Positions 5,073 through 17,082 of a DNA stretch of 17,082 nucleotides are shown in pieces. Each line of letters opens with the position of its first letter. Position 1 is the stretch's first letter. The translations under genes and the position numbers were made by a program. This DNA is from a virus (lineage: Duplodnaviria > Heunggongvirae > Uroviricota > Caudoviricetes). Under the pieces are notes generated by a model. The model saw only the letters and a list, made by a program, of their open reading frames with translations. It ran no database searches and was not told the origin of the DNA. Location: IMG/VR virus record IMGVR_UViG_2651869694_000011, one strand, 5' to 3'.

Positions 5073-5130
5073 AAAAAGGGCGGCAGAGCAGTCACGGAGT
5101 AAAACTGATACCGCCAAACGTCACCAGAAA
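5073..5130 (-). ncRNA. dicF: DicF small regulatory RNA
   Basis: The reverse complement of 5073-5130 reads tttctggtgacgtttggcggtatcagttttactccgtgactgctctgccgccctttttaa, which matches the E. coli DicF sRNA sequence from memory, including the terminal hairpin and U-run. Position directly upstream of dicB is as in the Qin dicB operon. Confidence 0.8.
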
Positions 5131-11559: not shown

Positions 11560-11734
11560 TGCTGCGGGTGCTTGAGGCTGTCTGCCTCGGGCATGCCACC
11601 GTAAGGCAGACAGAGAAAAGCCCCAGTTAACATTACGCGTCCTGCAAGACGCTTAACATTAATCTGAGGCCCAATCTATGCTTCACAAACGTAGGTTAGC
11701 CTCTTACGCGCCGAAAGGCAAGGAGAAGCAGGTT

Positions 11735-11890
11735 ATGAAGCAGCAAAAGGCGATGTTAATCGCCCTGATCGTCATCTGTTTAACCGTCATAGTGACGGCA
11801 CTGGTAACGAGGAAAGACCTCTGCGAGGTACGAATCCGAACCGGCCAGACGGAGGTCGCTGTCTTCACAGCTTACGAACCTGAGGAGTAA
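11735..11890 (+). CDS. hokD: Hok/Gef family type I toxin (HokD/RelF-like, 51 aa)
   Basis: MKQQKAMLIALIVICLTVIVTALVTRKDLCEVRIRTGQTEVAVFTAYEPEE matches the Hok family and E. coli HokD as recalled. SD AAGGAGAAG 9 nt upstream. Track ORF 11678..11890 is an in-frame upstream extension. Confidence 0.9.
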   Translation: MKQQKAMLIALIVICLTVIVTALVTRKDLCEVRIRTGQTEVAVFTAYEPEE

Positions 11891-13399: not shown

Positions 13400-13759
13400 A
13401 TGCTCATAGATTTGGTTTTACCTTACCCGCCGACGGTGAACACTTACTGGCGACGCCGTGGCAGCACATATTTTGTATCAAAAGCCGGGGAGCGTTATCG
13501 CCGGGCAGTGGTGCTTATTGTTCGCCAGCAGCGACTGAAATTAAGCCTGTCCGGACGGCTGGCAATAAAAATTATTGCAGAGCCACCGGATAAGCGTCGT
13601 CGTGACCTGGACAATATTCTGAAAGCACCGCTGGATGCGCTGACGCATGCGGGAGTGTTAATGGACGATGAGCAGTTTGATGAAATCAATATTGTACGTG
13701 GTCAGCCAGTATCTGGTGGACGGCTGGGTGTGAAGATTTACAAAATTGAGAGTGAGTGA
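13400..13759 (+). CDS. rusA: RusA Holliday junction resolvase
   Basis: 119-aa ORF. LPYPPTVNTYWRRRG and PDKRRRDLDNILKAPLDALTHAGVLMDDEQ match RusA motifs (E. coli RusA: PPSNNRYY and [30 protein letters not shown]). SD GAGGTGA upstream. Confidence 0.9.
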   Translation: MLIDLVLPYPPTVNTYWRRRGSTYFVSKAGERYRRAVVLIVRQQRLKLSLSGRLAIKIIAEPPDKRRRDLDNILKAPLDALTHAGVLMDDEQFDEINIVRGQPVSGGRLGVKIYKIESE

Positions 13760-13767
13760 GCGTAAAT

Positions 13768-14298
13768 ATGATATATCCGGAAATTACAGGCAAAAGCGGC
13801 GAACATTTACGCCTGAACACGCTGGAAGCAGTCTGGATCCAGGGGAAATTACGGATGTGGGGGCGGTGGTCGTATATCGGTGGGGGTAAATCCGGAAATA
13901 TGTTTAACCGGTTACTGGTTTCGAAAAAGCTGACGAAAACAGCAGTTAATGAGGTTTTACGCAGCATGAAGAAATCCGGGCTGGAAAAACCGGAACTTGA
14001 GGCATTTTTTCGGGATATGACCAGAGGGAAGCAGAAGAGCTGGTTGTCACATTGTACAGACACAGAGGCGTTGATTATTGATCGCGTTATCAGTGAGGTG
14101 CTTGGGGAATATCCCGGGCTAATCAATATTCTCCGGCAAAGGTACGAAGGACGGGGAATGAGTAAGAGAAAAATGGCAGAATGTTTAAATCGTACTCACC
14201 CGGAATGGTGTTTCAGCACATGTGAGAAACGTATTGCAGGTTGGTTAGCCGTGGCTGAACACATGCTTTATGTACCTATGCACGATTCATTTCGATAA
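13768..14298 (+). CDS. Putative late-gene antiterminator (Q-like); product assignment is tentative
   Basis: Sits immediately after rusA and before a promoter/terminator region and the tRNA genes, which is the canonical Q location. LRMWGRWSY weakly resembles the ERWGAWA motif of an E. coli prophage Q family. Start is either ATG 13768 or the upstream GTG 13756. Confidence 0.5.
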   Translation: MIYPEITGKSGEHLRLNTLEAVWIQGKLRMWGRWSYIGGGKSGNMFNRLLVSKKLTKTAVNEVLRSMKKSGLEKPELEAFFRDMTRGKQKSWLSHCTDTEALIIDRVISEVLGEYPGLINILRQRYEGRGMSKRKMAECLNRTHPEWCFSTCEKRIAGWLAVAEHMLYVPMHDSFR

Positions 14299-14392: not shown

Positions 14393-14419
14393 AAGCCACC
14401 GGAAGGTGGTTTTTTTGTG
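14393..14419 (+). terminator. Rho-independent terminator ~100 nt downstream of the Q-like gene (tR'-like)
   Basis: Hairpin ccacc-ggaa-ggtgg (14396-14409) followed by a T7 run (14410-14416). Confidence 0.6.
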
Positions 14420-14539: not shown

Positions 14540-14737
14540 ATGCTGAAACAGCAGGATATGACAGAAACCGCCAGAGTGGTGTTTAATGAATTAAGCGTTA
14601 CCGACCCGGCGACAGTCGGGGAGATTGCGCAGAATACTTACCTTTCACGCGAACGCTGCCAGTTAATACTGACCCAGCTGGTTATGGCGGGTCTGGCAGA
14701 CTATCAGTTTGGTTGTTACAGACGCCTTCAGTCCTGA
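14540..14737 (+). CDS. Hypothetical small protein (65 aa), possible HTH
   Basis: ATG at 14540 within track ORF 14417..14737. Sequence TVGEIAQNTYLSRERCQLILTQLVMAGLAD. The stop lies inside a strong terminator hairpin. Confidence 0.5.
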   Translation: MLKQQDMTETARVVFNELSVTDPATVGEIAQNTYLSRERCQLILTQLVMAGLADYQFGCYRRLQS

Positions 14738-14752
14738 AGGCTTTTTTATTTG
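14724..14752 (+). terminator. Rho-independent terminator
   Basis: 8-bp stem gccttcag / ctgaaggc (14724-14741) followed by ttttttatttg. Confidence 0.75.
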
Positions 14753-14855
14753 TGGTAAATGGGCGGCTGGTGGGTGTAAGGGGCACCCACCAGCCATCTG
14801 CTCATGCGTTGGGTTCACAAGCAAACCTCAGGCCCACTGCTTTGCGCAAAAGCAG

Positions 14856-15071
14856 AATGAGCCTATCGAAAAACCGGCAGAAATGTTGCAGCAGATAATC
14901 AGCGCAAGCAGTCGTCCGGGAGACCTGGTTGCAGATTTCTTCATGGGGTCGGGGTCGACAGTGAAAGCAGCGATGGCGCTGGGACGTCGTGCAACTGGCG
15001 TTGAACTGGAGACTGAACGTTTTGAGCAGACGGTGCGGGAAGTACAGGATTTAATCATTCGTAACGGATGA
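14856..15071 (+). pseudogene. 3' fragment of a DNA N6-adenine/N4-cytosine methyltransferase gene (retains motif I, lacks the catalytic motif IV region)
   Basis: C-terminal ~70 codons of track ORF 14709..15071: EKPAEMLQQIISASSRPGDLVADFFMGSGSTVKAAMALGRRATGVELE matches the HPTQKP...DPFxGSGTT SAM-binding region of beta-class MTases. No (D/N)PP(Y/F) motif upstream; the upstream ORF residues look unrelated. Confidence 0.6.
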
Positions 15072-15187: not shown

Positions 15188-15267
15188 ACCGCCACTAGCT
15201 CATCAGGAAAGAACGTCACCCTGTGCGAGATTCGGAGTCCCCGATGGCGGTCCATTATCGGTATTCT

Positions 15268-15344
15268 GCGTTGTTAGCTCAGCCGGACAGAGCAATTGCC
15301 TTCTAAGCAATCGGTCACTGGTTCGAATCCAGTACAACGCACCA
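15268..15344 (+). tRNA. tRNA-Arg (anticodon UCU, reads AGA/AGG)
   Basis: Manual cloverleaf: acceptor GCGTTGT/ACAACGC, D-arm GCTC/GAGC, anticodon stem ATTGC/GCAAT with loop CTTCTAA, T-arm ACTGG-TTCGAAT-CCAGT, discriminator A plus CCA. Confidence 0.9.
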
Positions 15345-15662
15345 CACCACACTTATCTGCCCTGACTCTCTTTTGCGGGCTTTTTATTACAGGAAAGACA
15401 CCGGACAGTGAAATGTTAAATGCCTCACAATTCAGGCAGTTGACTGTTGCCTGACATGCTGAGCGTTTGTTAAAAAAATCCTGCATGATGAATCCCCCTG
15501 AGCGGCGGGGCATAATGACAGATGTTTGGTTGCGTATTGTATAGGCAAGTTGCGGATTCTGTCTGGTCATTGCAGAATTCACCGGGAGGCACCCGGCATC
15601 ATGCTGTATACAGAGATTAGGCATATATCCAGGCTTCTCATCGCAGGAGCCTTTTTACATGC

Positions 15663-15688
15663 AAAAAAAAGCCCGAGTGGGTTCGGGC
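15663..15688 (-). terminator. Rho-independent terminator oriented on the minus strand, with no annotated upstream minus-strand gene
   Basis: Plus strand shows an A8 run (15663-15670) then hairpin gcccga-gtgggt-tcgggc (15671-15688), which reads as hairpin plus U8 on the minus strand. Confidence 0.55.
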
Positions 15689-15748
15689 AACAGCATGAGA
15701 TACTTGCATTGTCATTTTTATCGTGTGGATTTTAACCAGGGTTTATAA

Positions 15749-15780
15749 GGCTGCGCAACTGCGCGGCCTTTTTCGTTTTG
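15749..15780 (+). terminator. Rho-independent terminator upstream of nanS-p
   Basis: 9-bp stem ggctgcgca / tgcgcggcc (one G-U pair) followed by tttttcgttttg. Confidence 0.7.
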
Positions 15781-15867
15781 CGGGCTGCGGTTCTCCTCTT
15801 TTGATTCTCCTTGTGGCCGGACCGTGGCCCGCAACTGTTGAGGAAAATCCCGGAAAGGGGAGGAATA

Positions 15868-17082
15868 ATGGCATTTAAACACTATGACGTGGTCAGGGCG
15901 GCGTCGCCGTCAGACCTTGCGGAAAAGCTGACACACAAACTGAAAGAGGGCTGGCAGCCGTTTGGTAGTCCGGTGGCCATAACCCCTTATACCCTGATGC
16001 AGGCGATTGCAGCAGAAGGTGATGTGGTGGTCAGTGGTGCAACTGAGCCGGATTGGTACTACGTCATCGTACTGGCCGGGCAGTCCAATGCAATGGCTTA
16101 CGGGGAAGGGCTTCCGCTTCCGGATTCATACGATGCTCCGGATCCGCGCATTAAACAGCTGGCGCGCCGCAGTACAGTTACGCCGGGTGGGGCTGCCTGC
16201 AGATATAACGATATTATTCCGGCCGACCACTGCCTGCATGATGTGCAGGATATGAGTACGCTGAATCATCCGAAGGCAGACCTGAGCAAAGGGCAGTACG
16301 GCTGTGTCGGCCAGGGCTTACATATTGCCAAAAAACTGCTTCCGTATATCCCGAATAACGCGGGGATCCTGCTGGTACCATGCTGTCGTGGTGGTTCTGC
16401 ATTCACCCAGGGCGCTGAGGGGACATTCAGTGCGGACACGGGGGCCAGCCAGGATTCGGCACGCTGGGGTGTGGGTAAACCGTTATATCAGGACCTGATT
16501 GCGCGCACTAAAGCTGCATTACAGAAGAACCCGAAAAATGTGTTGCTGGCGGTGTGCTGGATGCAGGGAGAGTTTGACATGAGCGCCGCCACCCACGCAC
16601 AGCAACCTGCGCTGTTTACAGCCATGCTGACACAGTTTCGTGCTGACCTCTCCGTGTTTAACGCGCAGTGCCATGGTGGCAGTGCTGCAGATGTGCCGTG
16701 GATTTGTGGTGACACGACGTATTACTGGAAAAATACCTACGGCACGCAGTACAACACCATTTACGGGGCGTACAAAAACAGGGAGAGTGAGGGCGTTTAT
16801 TTTGTGCCCTTCATGACAGACGGTAACGGCGTCAATACCGCCACTAACGCGCCGGCAGAAGATCCGGATATTCCGGCATCAGGATATTACGGTGCGGCAT
16901 CGAGAACGAATGGAAACCAGGTATCATCAAACCGCCCGACACATTTCAGTTCATGGGTGCGCAGGAGCATTATTCCGGATCGTATGGCAACCGCTATTCT
17001 GAACGCAGCCGGGCGCACCTCAGCCTTCATCAGTGGTAAGGCACCGGAAATCAAACCCTCGCCCGGCGGCAACACGCCATCG
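15868..17082 (+). CDS. nanS: Prophage sialate 9-O-acetylesterase NanS-p-like protein (N-terminal DUF1737-like extension plus SASA/SGNH esterase domain); 3' end outside the window
   Basis: Open reading frame without a stop from the ATG at 15868 to the window end (405 codons, hand-translated; absent from the ORF track because it has no stop). Strong SD GGGGAGG. YYVIVLAGQSNAMAYGEGLPLPDS...RIKQLAR...NDIIP...HDVQDM...ILLVPCCRGGSAF...CWMQGEFD closely parallels E. coli NanS (YjhS) as recalled. Confidence 0.85.
   Translation, partial: MAFKHYDVVRAASPSDLAEKLTHKLKEGWQPFGSPVAITPYTLMQAIAAEGDVVVSGATEPDWYYVIVLAGQSNAMAYGEGLPLPDSYDAPDPRIKQLARRSTVTPGGAACRYNDIIPADHCLHDVQDMSTLNHPKADLSKGQYGCVGQGLHIAKKLLPYIPNNAGILLVPCCRGGSAFTQGAEGTFSADTGASQDSARWGVGKPLYQDLIARTKAALQKNPKNVLLAVCWMQGEFDMSAATHAQQPALFTAMLTQFRADLSVFNAQCHGGSAADVPWICGDTTYYWKNTYGTQYNTIYGAYKNRESEGVYFVPFMTDGNGVNTATNAPAEDPDIPASGYYGAASRTNGNQVSSNRPTHFSSWVRRSIIPDRMATAILNAAGRTSAFISGKAPEIKPSPGGNTPS

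Follow-up and report, generated by a model that had tools for sequence, protein, structure and literature searches.

A convergent pair of small RNA genes and a vacant cargo slot between the tRNA genes and nanS-p of a toxin-less lambdoid prophage

Convergent pairs of small RNA (sRNA) genes were found 3′ of PR′ in eight prophages of the Sakai strain of Escherichia coli O157:H7 (Tree et al. 2014, PMC4104026), and a 2021 review gave such pairs the name "dyads." Table S2 of the original study assigned EcOnc28, on the plus strand, and EcOnc03, on the minus strand, to prophage Sp9 (Tree et al. 2014, PMC4104026). [quoted passage not shown] 2014, PMC4104026). PasD1 and PasD2 of EPEC E2348/69 are reported to share a common ancestor and a fold with the STnc100 family; their genes reportedly lie directly 5′ of a sialate esterase gene in lambdoid prophages, BLAST does not link them to STnc100, and the seed regions of the two differ (Zhu, Shabalina, and Storz, 10.64898/2026.05.13.724894).

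The window analyzed here is a 17,082-nucleotide stretch of viral DNA, and the interval of interest within it runs from 15345 to 15867. BLAST indicated 100% identity between the interval and Sp9 of Sakai, with zero differences. Outside the interval, the window lacks 874 bp of a DNA methylase gene that is present in Sp9, and seven substitutions separate the two between 14867 and 16000. The Sp9 gene order matches that of the window, namely, methylase, tRNA-Ile, tRNA-Arg, the sRNA pair, and a nanS-p-like open reading frame (ORF), and the tRNA-Arg gene anchors the locus on its left side (Table 1). The interval occurs at ≥99% identity in 356 E. coli records, and at least 80% of it was found in 491 of 5,426 complete E. 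coli genomes, in which the RefSeq annotation places no feature there. We conclude that the interval very probably belongs to a lambdoid prophage without toxin genes, as the "moron" region of its late operon, and that it houses a described convergent pair of Hfq-binding sRNAs. The EcOnc28/EcOnc03 pair is already known at this locus, and the finding is real but ordinary.

Table 1. Features in and around the interval, in window coordinates
Feature	Position	Strand	Basis or remark
tRNA, CAU anticodon	15112-15187		5′ of tRNA-Arg; named ileZ in the Sakai annotation
tRNA-Arg, anticodon UCU, argO-type	15268-15344	+	ARAGORN; Rfam tRNA; Sakai Sp9 annotation
tRNA-Arg trailer	15345-15385	+	Common to Stx2 phages and Sp10 (BLAST)
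Vacant cargo (moron) junction, 39 nt	15386-15424	.	Alignment with Stx phages
Conserved block 5′ of sRNA promoter, AAATGTTAAAT-N3-TCACAATTCAG-N3-GTTGA	15411-15446	+	
Predicted sigma-70 promoter of STnc100-family sRNA	15447-15476	+	Conserved motif (predicted)
STnc100-family sRNA, EcOnc28 of Sp9	~15483-15657	+	Rfam; RNAalifold; published Hfq-CRAC/CLASH
EcOnc03, prophage anti-sRNA family	15663-15723	-	Exact published sequence; Rfam; terminator
Predicted EcOnc03 promoter	15729-15758	-	Sequence (predicted)
Intrinsic terminator between sRNA pair and nanS-p	15747-15780	+	Stem; T-rich tail
Long hairpin in nanS-p leader, GCGGGCUGCGGUUC...GGACCGUGGCCCGC	15778-15834	+	Fold; RNAalifold
Small stem UCCC/GGGA and nanS-p start	15848-15870	+	Fold; RefSeq CDS start

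The cargo slot and its stx boundaries

Alignment with Stx2a phages matched positions 15263 to 15385 of the window to tRNA-Arg and its trailer, and from 15425 on the window aligned with the sequence that begins 46 nt after the stx2B stop codon. Both flanks are homologous, and the 39 nt between them replace 1,341 nt bearing stx2AB in Sp5 and phi191. Homology to Stx1a phages began at ~15402 to 15411, and thus the junction ends earlier in that comparison, at ~15401 to 15410. Neither stxA nor stxB was present in the alignment between the late-region tRNAs and the sRNA pair and nanS-p of this locus. The original prediction had held that stxAB occupies exactly this slot in Stx-converting phages and that the ~520 bp found here could be an empty cargo site or encode a small RNA. 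Both flanks indeed fit the boundary of an stx insertion, at 15385/15425 for Stx2a, but other elements take up ~440 bp of the interval, so that the vacant site, although real, is much smaller than proposed, ~39 nt rather than 520 bp. Likewise, the position of stxAB corresponds to the first ~40 to 80 nt after the tRNA trailer, the rest lying 3′ of stx, and the small RNA alternative is borne out by the known STnc100/EcOnc28 and EcOnc03 pair but does not extend to the vacant ~39 nt.

A spacing of 109 nt between the tRNA and STnc100 was also seen in 25 of 120 IMG/VR loci, and in Sp10 the cargo slot is filled by a TerB-like coding sequence (CDS). The strong intrinsic terminator that Stx2 phages and Sp10 carry at the tRNA-Arg trailer has decayed in the window: Sp5 and Sp10 have GGCTCGC-TTTT-GCGGGCC-T6, and the window has just GCCC...GGGC-T5, with a trailer fold of -6 kcal/mol (z score, -1.4). 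The locus provides a base-level reference for a vacant stx slot, which aids the calling of stx gain or loss.

The two convergent sRNA genes

Comparison of the plus strand with the Rfam STnc100 model (RF02076) gave 175.2 bits (gathering score, 47; E value, 4e-41), and the match covered the full length of the model (positions 1 to 206 of 206; window 15454 to 15662). RNAalifold analysis of 13 diverse STnc100 copies indicated 35 base pairs, 8 of them with changes on both sides, arranged in a closing helix (GCAUGGUG/CACCAUGC), a CCCCC/GGGGG stem, a CCGGG/CCCGG stem, and a terminator. The closing helix starts at G15483, and the window carries a compensatory GCAUGAUG/CAUCAUGC version of it. A hairpin that the original prediction had noted at 15582 to 15598 is real and corresponds to CCGGG-AGGCA-CCCGG, a stem-loop that is invariant in the STnc100 model, and EcOnc28 has its own terminator, a stem at 15631 to 15652 followed by a U run, that the prediction had not listed. 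The published Hfq-CRAC peak of EcOnc28 in Sakai maps to ~15561 to 15606 (Tree et al. 2014, PMC4104026), and the read of the one published EcOnc28 CLASH hybrid, also from Sakai, equals window positions ~15520 to 15581. The case for EcOnc28 as an expressed Hfq-binding RNA is made by that peak and that hybrid, and for the pair as a whole transcription and Hfq dependence are known solely from what has been published for Sakai, whose sequence is identical.

Sequences consistent with a sigma-70 promoter were identified upstream of the closing helix, with a -35 element TTGCCT at 15447 to 15452, an 18-nt spacer, and an extended -10 element TGT-TAAAAA at 15468 to 15476. The motif TTG(C/T)CT-N18-TGT-TA(A/G)AAA, located 5 to 7 nt 5′ of GCATG, recurs in almost every variant, and Sp17 has the same layout. 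It replaced an initial scan match, CTGACA-N17-AAAAAT, which was dropped because its spacing varies in Stx1-type copies. Initiation at the predicted promoter would imply an EcOnc28 of ~175 nt, a length that fits EcOnc06 but not EcOnc27. Immediately upstream, the block at 15411 to 15446 is conserved across unrelated contexts (tRNA, stx1B, stx2B, and others), whereas the AgvB-type loci of Sp10 and Sp17 lack it, and RNAalifold predicted no base pairs within it. The block could function as a regulator or UP-type site, or it could represent a 5′ extension of longer isoforms. Another hairpin of the original prediction, at ~15434 to 15457, does fold as 8 bp (15432 to 15439 with 15447 to 15454) and overlaps the predicted -35 element, but it was not significant (z score, -1.6) and not consistently maintained in homologues, and it was rejected as a conserved RNA element.

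On the minus strand, the window contains the published EcOnc03 sequence exactly, and the published CLASH reads of both EcOnc28 and EcOnc03 agree with the window base for base, those of EcOnc03 from Sakai beginning GATAAAAATGACAATG. EcOnc03 consists of a variable 5′ region (15723 to ~15704), the family core GUAUCUCAUGC (15703 to 15693), which is common to all prophage anti-sRNAs, and a terminator with the stem GCCCGA-ACCCAC-UCGGGC (15688 to 15671) followed by U8, the complement of A15663 to A15670 of the plus strand. The original prediction was right that a minus-strand terminator exists here and wrong that no minus-strand gene lies upstream of it, as it terminates EcOnc03. The RNA folds at -13.9 kcal/mol (z score, -2.2). 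A predicted promoter comprises a -35 element TTGCGC (15758 to 15753), an 18-nt spacer, and a -10 element TAAAAT (15734 to 15729), with a putative start at C15723 or G15722; ATTTTAACCAG of this promoter is kept in EcOnc03, AsxR, and AgvB loci, and phi296-type loci have the same -35 element and spacing with TATTAT as the -10 element. From the predicted start to the U run is ~56 to 60 nt, and members of the family measure 51 to 60 nt.

The anti-sRNA family is defined by a highly conserved 3′ part of ~42 nt and a variable 5′ part of 14 to 18 nt, a description that EcOnc03 fits. Its position is also that of the family, 3′ of PR′, between tRNA-Arg and nanS-p, and convergent with an STnc100 copy. From GUAUCUC on, EcOnc03 differs from AsxR at two positions and from AgvB at three, and the 5′ ends are unrelated. 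The score against the Rfam AgvB model (RF02702), 56.6 bits, barely reached the gathering score of 56, and did so because of the shared 3′ part; that against AsxR (RF02703), 46.8 bits, fell below the gathering score of 63. The CACAACA motif, a mimic of GcvB R1 targets, is absent from EcOnc03, for which RNAduplex gave -14.5 kcal/mol with GcvB (z score, -0.5), a value matched by 88 of 300 shuffles, while the positive control, AgvB with GcvB, gave -21.0 kcal/mol (z score, -2.5; 3 of 300 shuffles as good). With FnrS, the z score of EcOnc03 was 0.0 and AsxR was weakly positive. Thus, EcOnc03 was rejected as AgvB proper, an anti-GcvB RNA, for want of the motif and of a stand-out duplex, and as AsxR proper, an anti-FnrS RNA, in view of the Rfam score, the FnrS result, and a locus without stx. 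Since the 5′ region paired with none of the three sRNAs compared by RNAduplex (GcvB, FnrS, and RyhB) better than shuffled sequences did (z scores for this region, ≥0), the "anti-sRNA" role of EcOnc03 is assigned by analogy only. The published CLASH partners, ompC and eptB, are mRNAs rather than sRNAs, and no core-genome sRNA partner of EcOnc03 was found in the literature. Homology with AgvB and AsxR suggests that EcOnc03 is most likely an Hfq-associated base-pairing RNA.

The eptB product adds phosphoethanolamine to the Kdo of lipopolysaccharide. The minus-strand anti-sRNA core (15703 to 15693) is complementary, over 11 nt and without a mismatch, to the start region of eptB, from -2 to +9 around the AUG. 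Moreover, a published RNase E-CLASH table lists hybrids of EcOnc03, AgvB1, and AsxR, each with eptB (ECs4425), which the main-text discussion of that paper does not mention and which we did not find elsewhere in the literature searched. Given the complement and the hybrids, the anti-sRNAs might repress eptB directly. We put forward direct repression of eptB by the multicopy anti-sRNAs as a tentative idea, more doubtful than probable. If it is true, eptB repression would come on top of any sponge function, and the candidate repressors would include the anti-sRNA of this toxin-less prophage.

A third terminator and the nanS-p leader

Three terminator-like sites were found in the 523-bp interval, on the plus strand at 15631 to 15652 and 15747 to 15770 and on the minus strand at 15688 to 15671. 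By sequence, all three belong to the class of intrinsic terminators, in which a G+C-rich hairpin directly precedes a U tract. A scan of the whole 2 kb returned six such sites, compared with 2.2 ± 1.5 in shuffled sequences. The two sRNA terminators stand back to back, 6 nt apart. The third, which the original prediction had correctly located, has a 10-bp stem with seven G-C pairs followed by the tail TTTCGTTTTG (-18.3 kcal/mol) and is present in Stx1a, Stx2a, stx-less, and AgvB loci. Its conservation was judged on loci found independently, as the search pattern of the first IMG/VR set had itself imposed invariance. Two further sRNAs were considered and rejected: a third Hfq-bound sRNA ending at this terminator, for which Table S2 shows no peak (Tree et al. 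2014, PMC4104026), and an upstream StxS-type PR′-tR′ sRNA, as the window has no similarity to StxS. In lysogens, the third terminator would most likely shield nanS-p and the lysis genes from transcription arriving from upstream.

Downstream of the terminator, the nanS-p leader (15778 to 15868) has a minimum free energy of -36.5 kcal/mol (z score, -2.1), and RNAalifold analysis of the leader hairpin in 15 variants, which represent few independent lineages, indicated three pairs changed on both sides. A small stem, UCCC/GGGA, covers part of the Shine-Dalgarno sequence GGAGG (15859 to 15863); the start codon at 15868 to 15870 is taken from the RefSeq annotation of a 99.8%-identical O111 prophage. 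UCCC-N4-6-GGGA is invariant in all variants and is therefore uninformative for or against pairing. No description of a terminator or leader upstream of nanS-p was found in the literature, and the leader elements appear undescribed. Separately from the eptB proposal and just as tentatively, the terminator, hairpin, and stem could make up a cis-regulatory leader that has not been described.

Working of the locus and its relatives

One could take the whole 520 bp as an empty cargo site without function, or as the scar of a past stx loss, with its hairpins as leftovers. The absence of stx, the match of the flanks to the stx2 boundaries, and the decayed post-tRNA terminator would suit that account, which is nevertheless already contradicted and very improbable: Stx1 and Stx2 phages still have ~440 of the 523 bp on the 3′ side of stx, the sequence matches curated RNA families with compensatory changes, Hfq-bound RNAs derive from the identical Sakai sequence, and near-identical copies recur in the 356 E. 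coli records. Hardly credible is a protein-coding interval, in which small proteins would come from a 116-aa minus-strand ORF (15274 to 15624) and a 69-aa plus-strand ORF (15526 to 15735). Some phage records do annotate a hypothetical CDS here, and there are PHROG matches (phrog_27294, phrog_24488, phrog_4647, and phrog_23494; E values of 7.5e-5 down to 1e-18), but these families are entries of unknown function, 39 to 83 aa long and covered only in fragments, Pfam gave zero matches, and RefSeq annotates nothing. The 116-aa ORF, the longest in the interval, lies antisense to tRNA-Arg and crosses the stx junction and is therefore impossible in Stx phages, and a 7-nt net indel relative to phi296 falls inside it. 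In a set of 76 unique homologous segments, both the strand and the length (41 to 119 aa) of the longest ORF vary, and no ORF is conserved. On these grounds the protein-coding reading was rejected; the original prediction had likewise seen no convincing ORF, and the conserved gene that would have spoken against it was not found in Pfam or among the 76 segments.

Two other alternatives concern the sRNA and terminator signals themselves. The STnc100-type RNA could be cut, wholly or partly, from longer upstream transcripts, such as those of the tRNA operon, PR′ read-through, or stx mRNA, in which case it would resemble a 3′-trailer- or 3′-UTR-derived sRNA. EcOnc27 is 60 to 70 nt longer than the predicted promoter allows, an excess that corresponds to the conserved block from 15411, and the terminator after tRNA-Arg has decayed in this prophage; moreover, a shared upstream promoter is unlikely because the upstream contexts differ completely. 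Processing nonetheless seems unlikely, if deserving of some weight, as the first helix is preceded, at a suitable distance, by a well-conserved -35/extended -10 motif, structure begins exactly at 15483 with nothing paired 5′ of there, and Sp17 lacks the upstream block yet makes a ~177-nt RNA. The hairpin at 15747 to 15770, in turn, could have been kept merely as the container of the EcOnc03 -35 element and not as a working plus-strand terminator. Indeed, TTGCGC lies inside the hairpin, and the stem shows no true compensatory changes. The loop variants AATA, TATT, and TTAT, however, lose the TTG of the -35 element and keep the stem and T run, the sole changes in the stem are G-C to G-U, and the site has the G-C-rich 10-bp stem and T-rich tail of a terminator. 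We consider a container role improbable.

The preferred reading is a vacant cargo slot of ~39 nt right after the phage tRNAs, followed by the intact module that otherwise follows stx. EcOnc28 would be made on the plus strand from its own conserved extended -10 promoter and end at its own terminator, and EcOnc03 would likewise use its own promoter and terminator on the minus strand. The variable 5′ end of EcOnc03 would set partner specificity, and its conserved core could pair with shared targets. During lysogeny, the third terminator and the structured leader would most likely keep sRNA, tRNA, or moron transcripts out of nanS-p and the lysis genes, and after induction all three terminators would be overridden by Q-modified polymerase coming from PR′.

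In toxin-less lambdoid prophages, as this locus shows, the Hfq-dependent RNA module found beside stx in Stx phages is preserved, and such prophages can therefore still rewire host gene regulation. The practical value of the analysis is in annotation, as some phage records and PHROG families carry spurious small ORFs over sRNA and tRNA genes; current understanding is unchanged.

The order of cargo, STnc100, anti-sRNA, plus-strand terminator, and nanS-p is common to Stx1a, Stx2a, and stx-less phages. The architecture and order recur in the EcOnc27 (sRNA103)/AsxR pair 3′ of stx2AB in Sp5, 933W-like phages, and phi191, complete with two terminators standing back to back, the further one on the plus strand, and the leader of nanS-p. 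Those loci are ~76% identical to the window from 46 nt after stx2B onward, have stx2AB and its 5′ region (1,341 nt) in place of the 39 nt, and encode AsxR, which targets FnrS and differs from EcOnc03 in the 5′ region. The Stx1a locus (Stx1_14040, Shigella phage 75/02 Stx) agrees with the window in its plus-strand terminator and in its anti-sRNA, whose sequence and Rfam scores are those of EcOnc03; it differs in having stx1AB upstream, no tRNAs immediately upstream, and a distinct middle part of the STnc100 copy, and its homology to the window starts ~30 to 40 nt after stx1B. The EcOnc06/AgvB pairs of Sp10 and Sp17 share the convergent layout and promoter motifs, and their plus-strand terminator differs by one G-C to G-U change. 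AgvB, an anti-GcvB sponge, shares its 3′ ~37 nt with EcOnc03, with three differences, and has the CACAACA mimic of GcvB targets that EcOnc03 lacks. EcOnc28 itself is a homologue of EcOnc27/sRNA103 and of the PasD relatives, PasD1 and PasD2 being related to STnc100 by their published description.

Identity of the interval between tRNA-Arg and nanS-p

A scan with all Rfam families indicated that the interval 15345-15867 contains a full-length match to STnc100 on the plus strand (15454-15662; 175.2 bits, gathering score 47, E 4e-41) and a match to the prophage anti-sRNA AgvB (anti-GcvB) on the minus strand (15664-15723; 56.6 bits, gathering score 56), and that a match to the related AsxR (anti-FnrS) fell below threshold (46.8 bits vs 63). 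Across the interval, the window and prophage Sp9 of E. coli O157:H7 Sakai share 100% identity; in Sp9 the gene order is DNA methylase, tRNA-Ile(CAU), tRNA-Arg(UCU), and a nanS-p-like ORF. Sp9 has two Hfq-CRAC peaks, EcOnc28 on the plus strand and EcOnc03 on the minus strand (Tree et al. 2014, Table S2; PMC4104026). The minus-strand RNA of the window, CGAUAAAAAUGACAAUGCAAGUAUCUCAUGCUGUUGCCCGAACCCACUCGGGCUUUUUUU, includes an exact copy of EcOnc03 as published (Tree et al. 2014, Fig. S4; PMC4104026), and EcOnc03 gives northern bands of 56, ~54, and 51 nt and loses stability when hfq is mutated (Tree et al. 2014; PMC4104026). When older Sakai coordinates were calibrated with a CLASH read starting GATAAAAATGACAATG at 1774552, the Hfq-CRAC peaks fell at ~15561-15606 (plus) and ~15667-15720 (minus), and ~15520-15581 corresponded to a CLASH read assigned to EcOnc28. 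The plus-strand RNA has a homologue in Sp5, EcOnc27 (sRNA103); the STnc100 copies of both Sp5 and phi191 are matched by the northern probe used for it. Convergent sRNA pairs have been reported 3' of PR', at the moron site, in Sp3, Sp4, Sp5, Sp9, Sp10, Sp11, Sp15, and Sp17 (Tree et al. 2014; PMC4104026); a later review terms them dyads of Hfq-binding sRNAs, with the late promoter on one side and the lysis genes on the other, and a 2026 preprint (10.64898/2026.05.13.724894) links STnc100 to PasD sRNAs upstream of an esterase gene. The small RNA that the original prediction offered as one option is thus present on each strand, and because Hfq-CRAC, northern, and CLASH data exist for identical Sakai DNA, the proposed RNA-seq check of transcription on both strands is already answered. 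We conclude that an Sp9-type toxin-less prophage carries the known EcOnc28 (STnc100)/EcOnc03 dyad here, following a vacant stx/moron slot of ~39 nt; the finding is real yet already explained.

A protein-coding reading of the interval was rejected, in keeping with the original view that it holds no convincing ORF. Its ORFs had no Pfam match, and their PHROG matches were fragmentary, to families of 39-83 aa and unknown function. The longest ORF of the region reaches 116 aa and passes through the tRNA gene in antisense orientation. In 76 unique homologous segments, ORF size and orientation were not kept: the longest ranged from 41 to 119 aa and switched strands. PHROG families phrog_27294, phrog_24488, phrog_4647, and phrog_23494 match ORFs overlying the tRNA-Arg, STnc100, and EcOnc03 genes (15274-15735) and are most likely families of miscalled ORFs. 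RefSeq carries no annotation on the interval. Of 5426 complete E. coli genomes, 491 contain at least 80% of it, and in 356 records of that search identity is 99% or higher. A consensus scan found six terminator-like sites in the surrounding 2 kb, vs 2.2 +/- 1.5 in shuffles; the two oppositely oriented terminators predicted originally (15688-15671 and 15747-15770) were recovered, and a further plus-strand site (15631-15652) had been overlooked.

Features of the interval and its borders (window positions)
Feature	Position	Strand	Detail
tRNA-Arg(UCU)	15268-15344		left border of the interval
Predicted promoter motif, plus-strand sRNA	TTGCCT 15447-15452; TGT-TAAAAA 15468-15476	plus	conserved motif
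Terminator-like site	15631-15652	plus	consensus scan
Terminator-like site	15688-15671	minus	consensus scan
Predicted EcOnc03 promoter	-35 TTGCGC 15758->15753; -10 TAAAAT 15734->15729; +1 15723/15722	minus	18-nt spacer
Terminator-like site	15747-15770	plus	consensus scan
Long hairpin	15778-15834		nanS-p leader; 3 pairs changed on both sides among 15 variants, which represent few independent lineages
UCCC/GGGA stem	15848-15870		overlaps part of the nanS-p Shine-Dalgarno
nanS-p-type esterase gene	start codon at 15868		right border of the interval

Predicted promoters, structure, and pairing of the two sRNAs

RNAalifold analysis of 13 diverse STnc100 family members predicted 35 pairs, 8 with compensatory changes, in a structure that begins exactly at G15483 with no pairing upstream, and the closing helix in the window is the compensatory GCAUGAUG/CAUCAUGC version. 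Nearly all variants carry TTG(C/T)CT-N18-TGT-TA(A/G)AAA 5-7 nt ahead of GCATG. Because this conserved motif lies directly upstream of the structure start, we infer a putative sigma-70 promoter with an extended -10 element, from which a transcript of ~175 nt would extend to the 15631-15652 terminator. The predicted length agrees with that of EcOnc06 of Sp17 (~177 nt) but not with that of EcOnc27 (~235/247 nt). In most, unrelated cargo contexts, STnc100 copies are preceded by the conserved block 15411-15446, AAATGTTAAAT-N3-TCACAATTCAG-N3-GTTGA. This block is absent in Sp10 and Sp17, and RNAalifold predicts no pairing for it; it could act as a regulator site, or longer and possibly processed isoforms could include it as their 5' part. 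By family membership, the plus-strand RNA would be an Hfq-binding, trans-acting sRNA, and for sRNA103 the literature reports only overexpression effects, on fimZ and espA. In some viral contigs the invariant STnc100 motif TCACCGGGAGGCACCCGGCA recurs in head-to-tail arrays (comparison sequences L144 457-982, L154 1810-2335, and L183 4463-5453) that repeat every ~253-255 nt or ~484 nt, which suggests tandemly repeated sRNA units.

The predicted EcOnc03 start site agrees with CLASH 5' ends, the -10 region is shared with the AsxR and AgvB loci, and EcOnc03 has the structural hallmarks of the anti-sRNA family. AgvB carries a CACAACA motif, whereas EcOnc03 does not. The 5' variable region of EcOnc03 alone paired with GcvB, FnrS, and RyhB no better than shuffles (z 0.0 to +1.0), as did its 26-nt 5' segment with GcvB (z -0.5), and the AgvB-GcvB control duplex stood out in both tests (z -2.2 and -2.5, respectively). 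Because the motif is missing and 5' pairing with GcvB, FnrS, and RyhB does not stand out, the Rfam "AgvB" label on EcOnc03 is family-level only.

No published partner of EcOnc03 was found in the literature. In the CLASH table, EcOnc03 is joined to ompC in 7 reads (pairing GCUGUUGCCC/GGGCAACAGC) and also to ECs4425, which is eptB, and GO enrichment of the EcOnc03 CLASH data points to cation and iron homeostasis, with the genes mntH, fieF, and bfr. The core GUAUCUCAUGC (15693-15703, minus), common to EcOnc03, AgvB, and AsxR, is complementary over 11 nt, without a mismatch, to Sakai eptB from -2 to +9, and AgvB1 and AsxR also form eptB hybrids in the published table; no discussion of this complementarity was found in the literature. 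Since we estimate that about 50 such 11-mers would occur genome-wide by chance and the EcOnc03-eptB shuffle z-score is only -1.3, the candidate eptB pairing is a lead and not a result.

In phi296-type loci (L004 2672-2770 and about 45 IMG/VR loci), the EcOnc03 position is taken by a different small minus-strand unit that ends in a terminator (GCCCGCGUCUCCCAGCGCGGGC) and has a U/G-rich body GUUUUGUUGUUUAUU and the same -35 and spacing as EcOnc03; the unit had no Rfam match at E < 0.01. The anti-sRNA of 9 IMG/VR loci (among L008-L127) has a fourth kind of 5' end, CGAUUAUAAAAAUGUAUAUCUCAUGCUGUUGCCCGAACCC..., unlike those of AgvB, AsxR, and EcOnc03.

The 15747-15770 terminator, the nanS-p leader, and other prophage features

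The hairpin at 15747-15770 and its T-rich tail were found in Stx1a, Stx2a, stx-less, and AgvB-type loci. Invariance in the first IMG/VR sample proves nothing, because that sample was chosen by this motif itself. In independently found loci the loop varies (AACT, AATA, ATTT, TATT, and TTAT), the stem and T-run stay, and the sole stem changes are G-C to G-U. The hairpin might be conserved merely as an element of the minus-strand promoter; that explanation was rejected because loop variants abolish the -35 TTG and keep the stem. No Hfq peak is reported at the site (Tree et al. 2014, Table S2; PMC4104026). We infer that 15747-15770 is an insulating terminator, which in lysogens would keep transcripts of the sRNA or tRNAs, or from moron promoters, out of nanS-p and the lysis genes; Q-modified polymerase would override it.

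In the leader that follows, UCCC-N4-6-GGGA is present in all variants with differing loops and, because it never varies, is uninformative on pairing. None of the Rfam families covers this stem or the 15778-15834 hairpin, and no papers on either were found in the literature. Leads remain for the 5' end of the plus-strand sRNA, the EcOnc03 partner, the eptB complementarity, and the undescribed nanS-p leader.

Elsewhere in the prophage, the DUF1133/Q-like ORF (13756-14298) is followed after ~100 nt by a hairpin at 14396-14416 (CCACCGGAAGGTGG) with seven T behind it, which resembles a tR'-type terminator for the transcript from the late promoter. This hairpin shows no similarity to StxS, an sRNA of Stx phages. 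In 14700-15071 (junction 14867), the DNA methyltransferase gene is shorter by 874 bp than in Sakai Sp9 and an O111 prophage; its start is missing, and just a 3' remnant is present, fused into a chimeric 120-aa ORF. Gathering-level Rfam matches were also found to sok antitoxin RNA (11566-11740, plus; 114.9 bits) and DicF (5078-5129, minus; 76.7 bits).

The stx slot compared with Stx phages

Stx1a, Stx2a, and stx-less phage loci were fetched and scanned with Rfam. In every scanned Stx locus, an STnc100 copy starts 74-78 nt past the stxB stop codon and an anti-sRNA comes next. BLAST aligned 15263-15385 to the tRNA-Arg and trailer of Stx2 phages and the window from 15425 on to sequence beginning 46 nt after stx2B. 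Thus, the flanks match the stx2 boundary at 15385/15425, and 39 nt (15386-15424) stand in for the 1341 nt that contain stx2AB in Stx2 phages. The empty cargo site of the original prediction therefore holds for ~40 nt only and not for the remainder of the interval. Among 120 IMG/VR loci, 25 had the 109-nt spacing between tRNA-Arg and STnc100 seen in the window, 25 carried stx2B, 7 carried stx1B, and the rest carried other cargo.

Sp5 and Sp10 have a strong terminator right after tRNA-Arg, GGCTCGC-TTTT/TTCG-GCGGGCC-T6 (L007 1518-1555 and L129 659-700). The terminator is degenerate in the window prophage (15358-15385), and therefore tRNA transcripts might run on into the sRNA region. In Stx1a phages, homology to the window begins at ~15402-15411 and the anti-sRNA copy is identical to EcOnc03, whereas in Stx2a phages the anti-sRNA is AsxR. 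Across the junction, the window and the stx-less phage phi296 are colinear, and in Sp10 a TerB-like CDS occupies the slot.
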